33,207 nucleotides of DNA from PVC group bacterium (GCA_003567575.1 PWZG01000382.1:1-33207), one strand, 5' to 3'; positions 25,548 through 32,354 are shown, counted from the stretch's first letter. Program-made: numbers and translations. Notes: generated by a model from the letters alone, not told the origin.

Positions 25548-28500
25548 TTACTCGGGTATAACGCCTTTAAGCAGCAGTCGATAAAATTCTCGATCATCTT
25601 GCGCGGGATCGGGCGGCTCGGGAAGCAACCGGAATTCATTCAGGTTTTTGTCGATCATGATTTCGCCCTGCGCATCATGCCAGTCGATTAAGTTATGACT
25701 GCGCTGCAAAATATAAGACCAATCGTAGCCGTCCAGATTAATGCGGACCGCGGGCGCCGGACCGACGGTAAAATATTCGGATGCGCCGGAAGCCTTCTCC
25801 CACGGAATCACTGTTTGGCCATCGTTTCCGCGTTGAACTCTGATGTAGTCCGCCAGCAATTGTTCCGCGATATCCAACCCGAGTTCCAGCTTGAATATCA
25901 GCGGAATGCCGTCGGCGCCGGCGGCATAACGATCGTCTTCGATGATCACAAATTTGCCGGCAAGACTGTCCGGCACCCAAAGCGCCCGGGGATAATCAGG
26001 ATAATCGGGGTGCTGCACGAAACCATGCGGTTCCGCATTGTCCGGGCGGCGATTATTGTTCAGATCGAGAAAAGCGCGAACATAATAAGTTCCCGAGCGC
26101 AGTCCGCGCAACGTGAAAGGCGGCAAGGCATCCGGCATGGTATTGGATACAATCACCTGCGCAACCGGCCATCCTCCGAATCCCGGCGATTCAAAAGCCT
26201 GCACCACGAAAACGGCGTTGGTTATATTGCCGAAATATTCAATCTCTCCACTGATCGAGAAAGGTCCGTCCTGATCGTCCTGTAAATCTATATGCAGGAG
26301 CGCGGCATCAGAGGATACGGAATTACGGCGATTCGAGGTGATTATGCGCCAGTAATATGAACCGTCGCTCAGATTCCCGTCGCCAGCATAATACGGCAGC
26401 TTGAAACGCACGATTCCATCGTCATCGCTTGGCGGCGCGGGGCCGTAGTGGTTGACGACGAGTTGTTCGAATTTCGCGTCGTCGGCAATTTGCAGGCGGA
26501 TGGCAGCGGTATGTGGATCCATCGTCCATTGGAACGGATTGCGCGCGTAACGCAAAACATCCCCGTCCGGCCATACGATTTCCGGTGGCGCCATGGTTTC
26601 GGGGTATTCCACGTTGAACCACCCGCTGAAAAGCGTCACGCCCGTATCGGGATGTTTAACGTTCCAATCGTACCGGCCCGCAAGCATTCCTTCGAATCCG
26701 TAACCGGCCAGCAGGAAATCCTGGACATGTACATAATGACGCGGCGCCCGGATGTTTCGGTTCAGGACCTCTGGAAAACCGTGATCGCTTTTGTACCAGA
26801 TAACGACCGAATACGCATGCAGTCCTTCGACTGCACCCCAGCCGAAACGCGAAAATCCGGGTGTGGTATCCGTCAGGCCGATGGCGACGGGACCGACGGC
26901 GCCTTGACGCACGTCGACAGGTTGTCCGTAAGCCTTGCCGGCGGCTTCGCCATTGTTCCAGGTTCCGTTTGCATTGCCGTCGATAAAGGCAAAAAACCAT
27001 GTATCGCCTTCTTCAAGAAAACCAGCCGCCGGCTGGCTCAGGGCAATCTCGGCCGGAAAATCAGTTACCGCCGCGTTGAACACCGCTCCGGGTTCGCCAT
27101 CCATGTTCTGGTTATCATAAGCGTGAATCACAACGGTTCCGGTTTTGGTCCCGGTGTATCGCAAATCGAAAACCACGGTCGTCGTCGCAAACGGCGGGGC
27201 GGCATCATCAGAAAGTACGATGGTTAACGGTATTTCCGTTCCCCACTGCACGTTGATCGGCTGATCGTACGCCATGCCGGCGGGTTCGCCATCGTTCCAG
27301 GTTCCGTTTGCATTCCCGTCGATAAAGGCAAAGAACCAGTAATCGCCTTCTCCAAGATCACCCTGGTCGGACTGACTGAGCGTTAATTGAGCCGGAAAAT
27401 TGGTGACGAGCGCCGAATAAACCGCGTCCGGATCGCCGTCCAAATCCTCGTTGTCGAAAGCATGGATGACAACGGTTCCCGTGCTGGCGCCCAAATAGCG
27501 CAGGTCAACGCTCAATGTCGGCGGTTGCACTGGATCCAGGGGATTCGGATCGACGGTATCAAGCGCTTGCGATTGCAATACCTGGATTTCCTCGCGTCCC
27601 GTCCGTTCGCCTCGAAGCGCGACAAGAGGATACCCGTCCTTATCAGAAACCAAGCAGGCTTGGCTGAGAGAGCCGATCGTATTATAAATACCCGGTAATT
27701 CGCCGGATCCTTCCAGTCCGTCCCACTGCGCGCCATCCCATTTTTTCAATAATAGCCGCGAGCCGGAATTGGCCTCCTTGGCCAGCCAGGCAACCATAAG
27801 GTTTCCGGCAGGGGTAAAGGCAATTCGCGTCTTATCAATATCGGCATGCAGCGCGCCGCAAAGGCCGGGATAAACCATCGAATTATTTTGGCCACTCGTC
27901 CCCAATCCCTGCCAATAGGCGCCGCCGCCGGTTTTCAAAGCGGCTCGGACGGTGTTCGTCCCGTTCTTCTCCGCTATCCAGCTTACGGCGATAGCGCCGA
28001 AATCGTCGCAGGCCAGTGCGGCGTCACGTGCCGTGGAATCCCCGATCAGGCCGCCGGCTACCGGTTGCCATTCCGTTCCGGACCACCGCTTCACGCGAAG
28101 GCGATGCGCGGTCGCATCCGTCCACAGCAGGACGGGATATCCGGCGGAATCCACGGCCATTTTGACCGGCGCTTCCGCGGCCGCCGTTGCCACCAGGCCG
28201 GTGACGCATCCGTCAAGTCCCACCCAGTTTACGGCATTCGCATCCCATGTTTTGACCAAAACACGATCGCCTTGCCGGTACGACACGACGGGTTGGTTGT
28301 CCAAGGCGACACGCACGGTGGGCGAAACGACGTTTTCGGGAAAAACAGCGCCGCTTACACCGTGTCCCTGATAGGATTTACCGAGCTGTATCCAGCGGCT
28401 GACGCCATCCCAAAGCGTATTATCCTGCCAATCCGCGGTGAGGTAGAGCAGGTACACGGAATCCGGAATACCGGGATTTTCGTTTTCCTGAATCCAGGCC

Positions 28501-31500
28501 AGGTAGAGCGTATTGTCCTCGTCGAATGCCAGCGTCGGCGAGTGGGCCGATCCCAGTTCGTTACGGCTGACTATTTCGCGATAGGGTCCGTCGCCGTAAT
28601 GGAACCACTTGTTTTCCAGGCGCCGCCATTCGGGCCACCCGTAAGTTTCGCTATCGACCCAACGGCGCACGCCGATTTGTGAGCGCGGGTTACCCGCAGC
28701 GGTATATGCCATCACGGGCGTATTGTCGCGATCCAGCGTCAGTTCCGGATCCCTTCCCATGGGTTCGCCGGCGGACGAGACGCCGCGATTTATGACCAAG
28801 GCAAAAACTTGTCCGCCTTCAGCTCCCTCCACGGGAACCTGCGCGCCTTGAACTACGATACGGTAGTTGCCTGGTTTAAGATCGCGAATGATAATCTGTT
28901 CGACGTTATTTTCCCTGTCATGTAAAAAACGCAACTGCCGTGCATCGCTTAAAACCACGGGCTCGACGGCGGCAAAGCGCCCCGCCGTTACCGTATGCGC
29001 AGGACCGAACTCATGGTTGTCTTTGATGACGATCGGATAACTGGCCATTCCCCATGTATCGCGTCCGAGAAAATTGCCGGCATAAACCGTCTGCTGGGCG
29101 GTGCCGGGCTGGTGATAAACGCGCAAATCAAGATCATTGACCAGGTTCCTCGCCGAACCGGGAGAACCAGGGACATCGCTCCAGGTCAGGGTTATTTTCA
29201 ACGAGCCACCGCCTTCTCCATGAGGCACGTTATAAAAGTGCTGCCAATCAGCGCCGGTGGTAATCGGGGCCACCTGGTGTTCGTCAAAAATGGTTAGTTT
29301 GTTATCGGCGAATGTTCCCGCTCCCAGCACGGCGCCGGCTATATCCAGTTTGCCCCAACCGTCATGAATGACGTCTTCCCGGCGCAGGCCGTCCAGTTGC
29401 TCCGTCAAATCCGGATGAGCGCTGATAACGTAACCCAGACCGATGTCATAATTCTGTTTAATTTCCGAGGCCGACAACTCCGTGTTGTAAAAGCGCAATT
29501 CATCGATATCCGCCGTCAGACCTCCCAACGTCCATTCCGCGGTCTGTATGCCGATGGGCGAAACCACGGCCACATGATTCCAGCCGTCACCCAGATAATG
29601 CACCTGGGCAGTTCCGTTAACATAAATTTTGGCGTTTTCCATGCCGAAAACGCCGATGGCGTTGCCGGGTTTGAGCAGTATCCGCAAGTCCACTTCGTTT
29701 TCCGTTACAAAATCAAGAATCGGGTAGGTATCCATCGCCATACCCTGTACTTTTATCCAGAATTCGATGGTGCGTGCCTGGAACTCGGTATCCTGGCGCC
29801 AGCCGTTGGTGATGGCATTCTCCGTCATCTCGAAATGGACGGAGCCGCCCTTGAAACGAACAAACTGTTCGAAACCGGGATTGGCGTTTTCGTTCTCGAA
29901 TTCGACGACTCCCTCCAAGATGTAACCGGGGATGAAGACGTTGGTGCCGTTGACGGATATCAATTCTTCATCGTTCAAAAAATCGTTCTCGAAAGACCAC
30001 CAGCCGAACACATCGTTATGCGGAACGATCTCGCCTGCATGCGTAATATTCTCTATCGCCAGTGCGGATGAATCCCGTTTGGGTCCCCATTCGTAGGCGC
30101 TGCCGTGCAGGTTGTGCGCGCCGCTGACGAGCAGGGCTTTTATCATCGCCGGACTGGGAGCCGCGCCGTATAAACCTATATAGTGCTGCCGCAGCAGGGC
30201 GGCGGCGCCGGAAGCGAATGCCGTCGCGCGTGACGTGCCGCTCATAAAGGCGTATTTCGAGCCGCTATCTACGTTGCCGTGATTAAAGTCGCGAATTTCG
30301 CCCAGCGGACTGTCAATGATTTCGGTATTGATATCGGACGACTGCAACGAGAGAACATATTCCCCCGGCGCCACCAGGTCCGGCTTTACGCGTCCATGGA
30401 TTGGCCCGCGGCCGCTGTAAGACGCCACCTGCCAGTCGGAATCGGTCGCCTGCAGACTTCTGTACGGGGATTGCGTCAGGTTGTCGGCATCGCGTTGCTG
30501 TTCGATGGCGCCGATAGTTATCACGTTTTTGGCGTTGCCCGGCTGCGATATGGTTCCCGGCGAACCGCTCGTGCCGGAGGTTGTACCCGCGCCGCTGTTG
30601 CCCGCGGCAAAAAATACTGTATAGGCCTTCTTGTCCTCCGTGGACATATCCACGTCCCTGACCAGCGAATCCCATTGCATGCTGGCTATGCCGTATTCGA
30701 AATTATCGCTCGCGCCCCAACTGTTGTTGGCGATGCGGGCTCCGCGTTGATAAGCTTCCATGGCGATCTCGTAAGGCTGAAACGCATTGTAGTCCTCGAT
30801 CATGACGTATTGCGCGTTGGTTGCCATGCCGGCGAACTGGTACGCCGCATACGGCGGGCCGGCCGAGCCCGGCGCGGAATTCACCGTGTCCGACAAGGCG
30901 CCACTGCCGAGTATCGTGCCCACAACATGCGTCCCATGCCCTTCATAATCATGTCCCGGCGTTCCCCCCGGGGGAGCGACATAGCCCTGGGGTACCAAAC
31001 GCCCGGCCAGAGCGGGATGGGAAACGTCCGCGCCGGTATCGCTGACCCCGATGATTTGTCCCGATCCGTCGAGAGAGGGAAGCGTTTTGCGCACCAGGTT
31101 GCGGCGGGTTGTCACAATTCCCAAATCGTTCATGGGCTCGAAACGGGGCACCGGTTCGACCCATTTCACGGCATCGGAATGCAGCAGGGCGTACAAATTA
31201 TCGGAGTCCATGTCGACTTCAGCCACCGCCTGCCGCGGCAAGGCGGGCAATTCACGCATTCGGGCTCCGGCAATTCCGAGGGCGCCGCGGCGCGGGACGA
31301 CCGCCGGCACATCCAGCGAAGGCAGATCTCCCGACGCGTCATGATCAATGGCCGCGGCAACGGCTGTTTCCGGATCGCCAAACAACAACACATGATAACG
31401 GCCGGATCCGGCCCGTGTCGCCGCGGTCTCGGCGTCCGGCGTGCCGGTCAGATACGCCTGCACATCGCTGTTCATCTTGAAAAAAGGATGGAAAGGTTCC

Positions 31501-32066
31501 ACATGACGCACACCTGGAGCGTTTCGCAAGCGCGTAATCGCCTGATGATCGCCGCTGACGGCCAGGGCGCGGTTCGGCACGAAATGTTCGACTCTCAATT
31601 CGCGGTCAGCGATAAAATCCCAGTGCTTGCCGGAAATAGGTTCGTCGAAAACAATAATTGCCCGGCGGTAATCTCCGGACGCGCGAAATTCCTCCGGTAT
31701 CATGGGGCCCGGTCCGCCCCCGCGTATTATATCCGTATCAATGATGGCGTTGCGCAGCATGATAACGGACGGATCCCGCGATAAAATGTCTATCGGCCGG
31801 TCTGCATTGGTCAGGATACCCGCCGCGCTCAAACGTTTTCGTTCGCTATCCGGCATAGAGGACGGTTGCAAAGCTTCTTCCGTGGATTGCAGCGCTACGG
31901 TAGCGGGCAGCGAATCCGGATGGGGAACTTCGCTGATTTCGAAGACCGGCAATTGTTCCGTCGTTGCCGAACGGTCAGCAAACAGCAAACGAAAACCGGT
32001 CCAAGCTACCAGGATTATTGACAAGCCAATAACGAAATAACGCCAGCGTATCTTACGTGTATGCAT
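25548..32066 (-). CDS. Giant (2172 aa) membrane-anchored multidomain subtilisin-like serine protease (peptidase S8)
   Basis: - An N-terminal signal anchor is present (RWRYFVIGLSIILVAWTGFRLLFA).
- Propeptide-like segments follow.
- The S8 triad motifs are VSDTG (Asp codon 31038-31040), HGTHV (His codon 30936-30938) and SGTSRA (Ser codon 30231-30233), with oxyanion NNSWG.
- A LamG-like module ends in DELRFYNTELSASEIKQNY (about 29440-30000).
- A DLDLRVY beta-sandwich is present.
- W-rich propeller-like repeats span about 27390-28770.
- Two tandem 113-aa modules are followed by a third, related module. Confidence 0.9.
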   Translation of the reverse strand: MHTRKIRWRYFVIGLSIILVAWTGFRLLFADRSATTEQLPVFEISEVPHPDSLPATVALQSTEEALQPSSMPDSERKRLSAAGILTNADRPIDILSRDPSVIMLRNAIIDTDIIRGGGPGPMIPEEFRASGDYRRAIIVFDEPISGKHWDFIADRELRVEHFVPNRALAVSGDHQAITRLRNAPGVRHVEPFHPFFKMNSDVQAYLTGTPDAETAATRAGSGRYHVLLFGDPETAVAAAIDHDASGDLPSLDVPAVVPRRGALGIAGARMRELPALPRQAVAEVDMDSDNLYALLHSDAVKWVEPVPRFEPMNDLGIVTTRRNLVRKTLPSLDGSGQIIGVSDTGADVSHPALAGRLVPQGYVAPPGGTPGHDYEGHGTHVVGTILGSGALSDTVNSAPGSAGPPYAAYQFAGMATNAQYVMIEDYNAFQPYEIAMEAYQRGARIANNSWGASDNFEYGIASMQWDSLVRDVDMSTEDKKAYTVFFAAGNSGAGTTSGTSGSPGTISQPGNAKNVITIGAIEQQRDADNLTQSPYRSLQATDSDWQVASYSGRGPIHGRVKPDLVAPGEYVLSLQSSDINTEIIDSPLGEIRDFNHGNVDSGSKYAFMSGTSRATAFASGAAALLRQHYIGLYGAAPSPAMIKALLVSGAHNLHGSAYEWGPKRDSSALAIENITHAGEIVPHNDVFGWWSFENDFLNDEELISVNGTNVFIPGYILEGVVEFENENANPGFEQFVRFKGGSVHFEMTENAITNGWRQDTEFQARTIEFWIKVQGMAMDTYPILDFVTENEVDLRILLKPGNAIGVFGMENAKIYVNGTAQVHYLGDGWNHVAVVSPIGIQTAEWTLGGLTADIDELRFYNTELSASEIKQNYDIGLGYVISAHPDLTEQLDGLRREDVIHDGWGKLDIAGAVLGAGTFADNKLTIFDEHQVAPITTGADWQHFYNVPHGEGGGSLKITLTWSDVPGSPGSARNLVNDLDLRVYHQPGTAQQTVYAGNFLGRDTWGMASYPIVIKDNHEFGPAHTVTAGRFAAVEPVVLSDARQLRFLHDRENNVEQIIIRDLKPGNYRIVVQGAQVPVEGAEGGQVFALVINRGVSSAGEPMGRDPELTLDRDNTPVMAYTAAGNPRSQIGVRRWVDSETYGWPEWRRLENKWFHYGDGPYREIVSRNELGSAHSPTLAFDEDNTLYLAWIQENENPGIPDSVYLLYLTADWQDNTLWDGVSRWIQLGKSYQGHGVSGAVFPENVVSPTVRVALDNQPVVSYRQGDRVLVKTWDANAVNWVGLDGCVTGLVATAAAEAPVKMAVDSAGYPVLLWTDATAHRLRVKRWSGTEWQPVAGGLIGDSTARDAALACDDFGAIAVSWIAEKNGTNTVRAALKTGGGAYWQGLGTSGQNNSMVYPGLCGALHADIDKTRIAFTPAGNLMVAWLAKEANSGSRLLLKKWDGAQWDGLEGSGELPGIYNTIGSLSQACLVSDKDGYPLVALRGERTGREEIQVLQSQALDTVDPNPLDPVQPPTLSVDLRYLGASTGTVVIHAFDNEDLDGDPDAVYSALVTNFPAQLTLSQSDQGDLGEGDYWFFAFIDGNANGTWNDGEPAGMAYDQPINVQWGTEIPLTIVLSDDAAPPFATTTVVFDLRYTGTKTGTVVIHAYDNQNMDGEPGAVFNAAVTDFPAEIALSQPAAGFLEEGDTWFFAFIDGNANGTWNNGEAAGKAYGQPVDVRQGAVGPVAIGLTDTTPGFSRFGWGAVEGLHAYSVVIWYKSDHGFPEVLNRNIRAPRHYVHVQDFLLAGYGFEGMLAGRYDWNVKHPDTGVTLFSGWFNVEYPETMAPPEIVWPDGDVLRYARNPFQWTMDPHTAAIRLQIADDAKFEQLVVNHYGPAPPSDDDGIVRFKLPYYAGDGNLSDGSYYWRIITSNRRNSVSSDAALLHIDLQDDQDGPFSISGEIEYFGNITNAVFVVQAFESPGFGGWPVAQVIVSNTMPDALPPFTLRGLRSGTYYVRAFLDLNNNRRPDNAEPHGFVQHPDYPDYPRALWVPDSLAGKFVIIEDDRYAAGADGIPLIFKLELGLDIAEQLLADYIRVQRGNDGQTVIPWEKASGASEYFTVGPAPAVRINLDGYDWSYILQRSHNLIDWHDAQGEIMIDKNLNEFRLLPEPPDPAQDDREFYRLLLKGVIPE

Positions 32067-32204: not shown

Positions 32205-32354
32205 TCATACGGAGCGCCGTCCCTGAATTAGCCGGACCAACACCATAACGACCGCAATCACCAGAAGAACGTGAACGAATCCGCCCATTGTGGTGCTGCT
32301 TACCAATCCCAGTAACCAGAGAACCAGCAAAACTACCGCTATAGTCCAAAGCAT
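32205..32354 (-). CDS. lmo0937-family small membrane protein (49 aa)
   Basis: This ORF is not in the ORF track because it is under the size cutoff. The minus strand has the RBS tagAAGGGAGtttctc before the ATG. The translation is MLWTIAVVLLVLWLLGLVSSTTMGGFVHVLLVIAVVMVLVRLIQGRRSV. This is the conserved two-helix pattern of the family (MLWTI..(I/V)LL(V/I)LWLLG......GG.(I/V)H.LLVIA(V/I)......L(I/V)QGR). Confidence 0.75.
   Translation of the reverse strand: MLWTIAVVLLVLWLLGLVSSTTMGGFVHVLLVIAVVMVLVRLIQGRRSV

Follow-up and report, generated by a model that had tools for sequence, protein, structure and literature searches.

A giant KP-43-type subtilase whose catalytic domain holds a predicted Laminin_G_3 module within its final surface loop

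A DNA stretch of 33,207 nucleotides from a PVC group bacterium (GCA_003567575.1 PWZG01000382.1:1-33207; this whole stretch is called the window in the following) carries on its minus strand the gene of a giant subtilase, a protease of the S8 family. According to profile matches, a complete Laminin_G_3 (LamG) module sits within the final surface loop of the S8 domain, between the helix that follows the catalytic Ser and the strand with the motif GWG. The gene product is a real, conserved and genus-restricted variant within a common class of giant PVC-group subtilases. Literature searches found no LamG insertion in a subtilase; the nesting site is new relative to the literature searched, while nested domains in subtilases as such are well known. 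The open reading frame (ORF) extends without any internal stop over the 2172 codons that an initial annotation, made from the sequence of the window, had assigned to it. The host genome, from an uncultured soda-lake member of the Kiritimatiellia, is a metagenome bin of 4.03 Mb with a completeness of 83 %, and the gene is present in this bin as a single copy. The gene and the regions relevant for the placement of the module are as follows:

25548-32066, minus strand: whole gene, 2172 codons plus stop, single copy
30102-31079, minus strand: S8 catalytic domain up to the helix ALLVSGAHNL, residues 330-655 (PF00082; KP-43/SubHal)
29367-30101, minus strand: insert, residues 656-900, consisting of an N-terminal junction (656-682), Laminin_G_3 (about 683-880) and a C-terminal junction with a short helix (881-900), from Pfam and profile matches
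29307-29366, minus strand: terminal S8 block HDGWGKLDIAGAV, strand and helix, residues 901-920, with a predicted local distance difference test score (pLDDT) of 72-86
28782-29306, minus strand: KP-43-type C-terminal beta-jelly-roll with DLDLRVY, residues 921-1095 (phmmer domains 2 and 3 against 5fax/1wmd)

Placement of the module in the S8 domain

The Pfam profile Peptidase_S8 (PF00082) matched residues 334-653 with 134.6 bits (threshold 21.8) and covered profile positions 1-276 of 288. The catalytic triad, annotated as intact, is present in the order Asp-His-Ser with the motifs SDTGAD (D343), GHGTHV (H377) and SGTSRA (S612), and the oxyanion Asn is located in AAGNSG; all of them line up with the residues of KP-43 in phmmer alignments. 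The best solved relatives by phmmer were SubHal (5fax) and KP-43 (1wmd), alkaline and oxidatively stable subtilases of Bacillus, with E-values of 1e-35 to 1e-37. Their catalytic domain covers residues 330-656 of the query and their beta-jelly-roll (chain residues 312-431) covers residues 921-1091, so the beta-sandwich annotated around DLDLRVY corresponds to the KP-43/SubHal jelly-roll. About 265 query residues between both alignments have no counterpart in these enzymes. An AlphaFold model of residues 41-1110, calculated with an alignment of 48 homologs, was confident in the pro-region, the S8 core, the block behind the insert (pLDDT 72-94) and the beta-sandwich. In Foldseek searches 5fax and 1wmd were the top folds with TM scores of 0.82-0.83 (normalised to the target) and alignments of about 800 columns that bridge the insert, followed by ProN-Tk-SP. 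By sequence and model, the protein is thus predicted to be an S8A subtilase of the KP-43/SubHal type with the jelly-roll directly after the catalytic domain. KP-43 and SubHal share the S8A domain, the jelly-roll and the GWG block with the query, but they are mature enzymes of about 434 residues with a helix-to-GWG loop of about 15 residues, and they lack a nested module, the propeller and the C-terminal cassette.

The position of the GWG motif decides on the placement of the LamG module. GWG constitutes the final three positions (286-288) of the Pfam S8 profile and is invariant across the alignment of 48 homologs. In homologs with a short loop the profile reaches position 287-288 of 288 and ends exactly at GWG or GFG. 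The query match stops at position 276 (residue 653), with GWG 249 residues downstream; the block HDGWGKLDIAGAV begins at residue 901, 289 residues past S612, where the initial annotation had estimated about 290. Because the profile ends on GWG in the short-loop homologs, the LamG module falls within the catalytic-domain model, after S8 profile position 276 and before about position 286. This agrees with the annotated insertion within the catalytic domain, as distinct from a domain appended to a complete fold. The distance from the helix to GWG is at most 30 residues in 109 of 114 homologs and about 246 residues in the query. In the five closest relatives (P0002-P0006) the helix of the catalytic Ser runs straight into the GWG block, and the BLAST coverage of the query by 120 S8 homologs drops to almost nil at residues 660-900.

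The opposite reading, a LamG domain separate from and following a complete S8 fold, or an artefact of the assembly, can refer to the small remainder of about 12 Pfam profile positions past the insert. Once the insert has been spliced out in silico, local alignments go no further than position 276 of the Pfam S8 hidden Markov model (HMM), or residue 296 of the KP-43 chain, and the metagenome bin is fragmented into 630 contigs. However, GWG terminates the profile in short-loop homologs and does not vary among the 48 homologs, the Foldseek alignments with KP-43 and SubHal extend across the insert, and in an independent assembly of a sister species the same insert recurs, its junctions conserved and its frame open. 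We consider a separate domain or an artefact extremely unlikely; this explanation is already largely refuted.

The assignment of the insert to Laminin_G_3 is based on several profile comparisons. Residues 653-900 alone matched Laminin_G_3 (PF13385) with 32.9 bits at a threshold of 27.6; a scan with the full-length protein gave a weaker match of 25.4 bits for residues 805-870. From 'FGWWSFEND' to 'DELRFYNTELSASEIKQNY' the insert was aligned end to end with complete LamG_3 modules of unrelated proteins, and all 14 of the 14 aligned modules match Laminin_G_3. The profile obtained from this alignment hits three concanavalin-A-like modules of solved structure, 4qvs, 5hon and 5ho0. Large multidomain proteins contribute hundreds of LamG_3 modules to the relatives of the insert, which also include the auxiliary domain of the arabinanase AbnA.

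Conservation, distribution and inserts in the same loop

The genome G001 of the same genus holds an ortholog in pieces (contig PXCX01000155.1) with an overall identity of 58-60 %. The insert is present in it, the frame is open and both junctions are conserved. The identity to G001 differs by region, with 52-54 % in the insert, 55 % in the beta-sandwich and 71 % in the C-terminal part of S8, the best conserved region. In every region, synonymous differences between query and G001 affect about half of the conserved codons. Since this holds for the insert with its 52 % identity as it does for the flanks, the insert is constrained like the other domains and is conserved in the sister species under purifying selection.

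Searches for the arrangement beyond this ortholog were negative. A word-indexed search with residues 655-905 among proteins of similar length gave nothing. The exhaustive HMMER search with the insert in 1.84 billion representatives yielded 494 LamG matches, none of them below 1e-30, and the best 150 matches were without S8 similarity. Scans for the junction pattern detected only the G001 contig among genome contigs and none among metagenome contigs. Among the data searched, the nested-LamG arrangement was thus found only in one genus, to which it seems to be confined. The five closest relatives share with the query 39-43 % identity over pro-region and S8 and 27-29 % over jelly-roll and propeller, up to about residue 1500 of the query; some of them end in the same C-terminal FYR tail, and P0004 is labelled Kiritimatiellia. 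They differ by a loop of 15-19 residues without LamG and by C-terminal halves with Kelch, PEGA and TSP3 domains.

The helix-to-GWG loop carries other modules in three distant homologs. P0055 has an insert of 171 amino acids (aa) with an InhA-like MAM match of 47.6 bits. In P0017 the insert of about 195 aa is a related, MAM-like jelly-roll with a Reelin-subrepeat-B/BNR-like signature. The insert of P0074 comprises 345 aa with propeller-type repeats, 'LALD..D.PHISY...W', that weakly resemble the downstream propeller of the query (E-value 5e-5). These inserts occupy exactly the same loop as in the query, but they are MAM-like modules or propeller repeats, not LamG. P0015 had looked like another such case, but it was discarded as its additional segment is located before the catalytic Ser. 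The loop is an insertion hot-spot, used recurrently in the clade, because three distant homologs independently carry other modules there. A generalization appears rather doubtful to us: the helix-to-GWG loop of KP-43-type subtilases would be a general docking port, repeatedly fitted with binding modules that could flank the cleft and retarget the protease, e.g., to glycoproteins or glycan-embedded proteins. If true, it would represent a natural design principle for substrate-specific subtilases.

Whole domains nested in surface loops of the S8 domain are known from other subtilases. Plant subtilases, C5a peptidase and lactocepin have a PA domain of this kind, and pyrolysin and tripeptidyl-peptidase II carry inserts as well. 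All of these are located between Asp and His or between His and Ser. A characterised subtilase with a protease domain interrupted by a beta-sandwich is CspB of Clostridium, in which an inserted jellyroll of about 130 aa, said to interrupt the protease domain in a 'central' position, makes the enzyme more rigid and promotes its autoprocessing (PLoS Pathog 2013, PMC3567191). This jellyroll is Tk-SP-like with a stabilising role and not a Laminin_G_3 module. From the quoted numbering of His183 and Ser494 we infer that the CspB insert precedes the catalytic Ser, whereas the insert of the query follows it. The NCBIfam profile CspBA matched the query with an E-value of 0.4 only, and the protein was not assigned to the Csp proteases.

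Proposed function and competing explanations

Subtilases are workhorse enzymes, and it is usually appended domains or a PA domain nested between His and Ser that adjust their specificity. Kiritimatiellia are known as degraders of complex glycans. On balance, the protein is probably an exported, nutritional pre-pro-subtilase of the KP-43/SubHal type from a soda-lake member of the Kiritimatiellia, in which the nested LamG acts as a substrate-binding exosite. According to established subtilase biology, the pre-pro-enzyme would be exported by the Sec pathway, fold with assistance of the propeptide and be auto-cleaved as in other subtilases. The beta-jelly-roll may support maturation and stability: the KP-43 jelly-roll is required for propeptide cleavage and aids stability and collagen binding in the related enzyme TSS (PMC11294657). 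The product would be an active protease, extracellular or at the cell surface, for the acquisition of nutrients, and the nested LamG together with the propeller could serve as an exosite that binds glycosylated or polymeric substrates and keeps them close to the catalytic domain. With the propeptide auto-cleaved, an N-terminal anchor would not retain the mature enzyme, so any retention would be left to the C-terminal FYR tail, which might hold the enzyme at the cell surface.

Several observations weigh against this interpretation. The insert has a pLDDT below 50 in the AlphaFold model with a coverage by two sequences; the model is poor because only two sequences cover the insert, and therefore its fold assignment rests on sequence-profile evidence. 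The ortholog in G001 is split over contigs. The contig C286 of G001 (L014) was evaluated as its C-terminal part and rejected, since it differs upstream (TSP3 plus LamG), has an in-frame stop and is paralog-like. In the C-terminal half, where the initial annotation had expected three DUF2141-like modules, three related modules indeed exist, but the resemblance to DUF2141 (PF09912) concerns the third module only, which reached alone 15.1-18.6 bits and remained under the threshold of 24.4.

An alternative role of the nested LamG is that of a structural brace for folding or stability, comparable to the CspB jellyroll or the P-domain of kexin, perhaps as an adaptation to saline-alkaline conditions, and not an exosite. 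The rigidifying jellyroll of CspB, the need for the KP-43 jelly-roll in maturation and the good conservation of both insert junctions between the two orthologs would fit to a brace. However, the same core is maintained in P0002-P0006 in the absence of an insert, thus the core folds without it, and this weakens the explanation as brace. Moreover, what occupies the same loop in other homologs (MAM-like modules, propeller repeats) is typical of binding modules, and so are the relatives of the insert. We regard a mainly structural role as unlikely.

Alternatively, the protein may chiefly be a surface adhesin or scaffold, with a protease for self-processing only or even a pseudo-enzyme. About 1500 of the 2172 residues belong to non-catalytic beta modules (propeller, LamG, small modules and tail), and the C-terminal tail is common to many exported giants. 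On the other side, conservation extends to the triad, the oxyanion Asn and the substrate-binding segments, all of which can be aligned with the active enzymes KP-43 and SubHal, and the S8 part with its 71 % identity is the best conserved one between the orthologs. An adhesin or scaffold of this kind is very unlikely in our view.

A lectin-type module in this final catalytic loop extends the list of permissive insertion sites in subtilases, and the site could be exploited for the engineering of targeted proteases. The nested LamG may also bear on the attack of Kiritimatiellia on glycan-shielded proteins. The gain is incremental, as multidomain S8 proteases of giant size with LamG modules are frequent among these bacteria and any function of the nested LamG is putative.

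Terminal regions and genomic context

The remaining regions of the protein are:

31977-32066, minus strand: N-terminus, residues 1-30, with a basic n-region and a hydrophobic stretch (11-25), then 'LFA/DRS', from hydropathy
31080-31976, minus strand: pro-region, residues 31-329, two modules of beta-alpha-beta-beta-alpha-beta type (AlphaFold pLDDT 85-96)
27567-28766, minus strand: beta-propeller of about 7 blades (W-repeats), residues 1101-1500 (model pLDDT 70-92)
26868-27533, minus strand: tandem duplicate beta modules with 'WFFAFIDGNANGTW', residues 1512-1620 and 1625-1733 (mutual identity 57-62 %)
26277-26849, minus strand: two small all-beta modules, residues 1740-1930 (model strands with pLDDT 55-86)
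25947-26264, minus strand: third related module 'YYVRAFLDLNNN', residues 1935-2040, 31 % identical to module 1 (over about 1935-2016)
25551-25775, minus strand: conserved FYR tail 'YILQRSHNLIDW...EFYRLLL', residues about 2098-2172, the last about 75 residues (tail HMM)

The protein had been annotated as anchored, but judged from its hydropathy the N-terminus could equally be a cleavable Sec signal peptide as a signal anchor; the ortholog in G001 begins in a similar way with 'LLLLTVLLLLGGWLGFRWLFSPDD'. The pro-region is common to about 50 homologs. Foldseek aligned it to ProN-Tk-SP (3afg), and zero Pfam matches were obtained with residues 31-329. The composition of the whole protein (P0001) is strongly acidic and lysine-poor with 12.7 % Asp plus Glu and 2.1 % Lys, which is compatible with a saline-alkaline habitat; four Cys are present in total, all inside the propeller.

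The repeats with a W-pattern, annotated as propeller-like, were modelled as an all-beta structure of about 7 blades, and a propeller is common to P0002-P0006 and G001. Foldseek searches with residues 1101-1500 gave propellers with six or seven blades of GH145, sialidase, PL24, PL42 and a fucose lectin (TMt 0.5-0.6, 10-15 % identity). The Asp-box (S-x-D-x-G-x-x-W) was searched in residues 1101-1500 and none was found, hence the region was not classified as a GH33 sialidase type. The model suggests a propeller without recognisable enzyme identity. Past residue 1500 the structure model of the C-terminal half is poor. The two adjoining modules of 109 residues represent a tandem duplication within the gene; neither has a match to Pfam or to DUF2141. 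The small modules of residues 1740-1930 have no Pfam match, but are conserved in L014 and L019-L024. Scanned singly against Pfam and NCBIfam, the C-terminal modules gave no match.

The C-terminus had been annotated as unique, and this view had to be abandoned. The query carries the pattern 'W...Y.[VL].....L..W......[FY][FY]R[VLI]' at the very C-terminus. An HMM of this FYR tail, built from a seed of the query tail and six metagenome relatives, scored 75 bits on the query, whose tail is itself in the seed. The tail is found at the end of 37 of 121 S8 homologs. In the host genome (G000) it terminates at least 7 large ORFs against a background count of 2: this gene and ORFs on the contigs C221, C245 (a second S8 ORF), C297, C305, C327 and C366. 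No listed family of Pfam or NCBIfam was found for the tail. It may be a tag for surface retention or export.

The C-terminal cassette recurs in six metagenome loci. L021 (at least 3011 aa) and L022 (at least 4096 aa) combine S8, 5-7 Laminin_G_3 domains and TSP3 repeats with the same cassette including the FYR tail. They differ from the query by Laminin_G_3 matches outside an uninterrupted S8 match, as judged by Pfam placement alone, by a fervidolysin-type prodomain and by TSP3. The domain set is recurrent, because L021 and L022 pair the cassette with S8 and Laminin_G_3; several homologs combine Laminin_G_3 with S8, and the core is shared with P0002-P0006. Thus the domain combination is not unprecedented, although the initial annotation listed it as unseen in characterised subtilases. 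A further copy of the cassette with 39-42 % identity is located at positions 1-3045 of L014, set off from the upstream TSP3 and LamG by a single in-frame TAA; this arrangement could be due to two genes, a pseudogene or a sequencing error.

In the window the protease gene is convergent with a DUF4838 gene cluster. An ORF of 49 codons for a membrane peptide with two helices (32205-32354, minus strand) is located 138 nucleotides upstream of the protease. The ortholog in G001 is preceded by a gene of OmpA/TSP3 type; the small ORF is not present upstream of it, so this linkage is not conserved. The neighbours of P0002 are unrelated to those of the query. A comparison of the window, G001 and the P0002 locus revealed no shared partner gene, consistent with the missing partner noted in the initial annotation. 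At the P0002 locus (L025, 8001-20319) the gene for P0002 (1935 aa) is followed by one for a Kelch/PEGA protein of 2176 aa with an overlap of 20 nucleotides. This locus may have arisen from a gene split or contain a frameshift; in P0003 and P0006 the parts equivalent to P0002 and to the Kelch/PEGA protein form a single protein of 3500-3800 aa.

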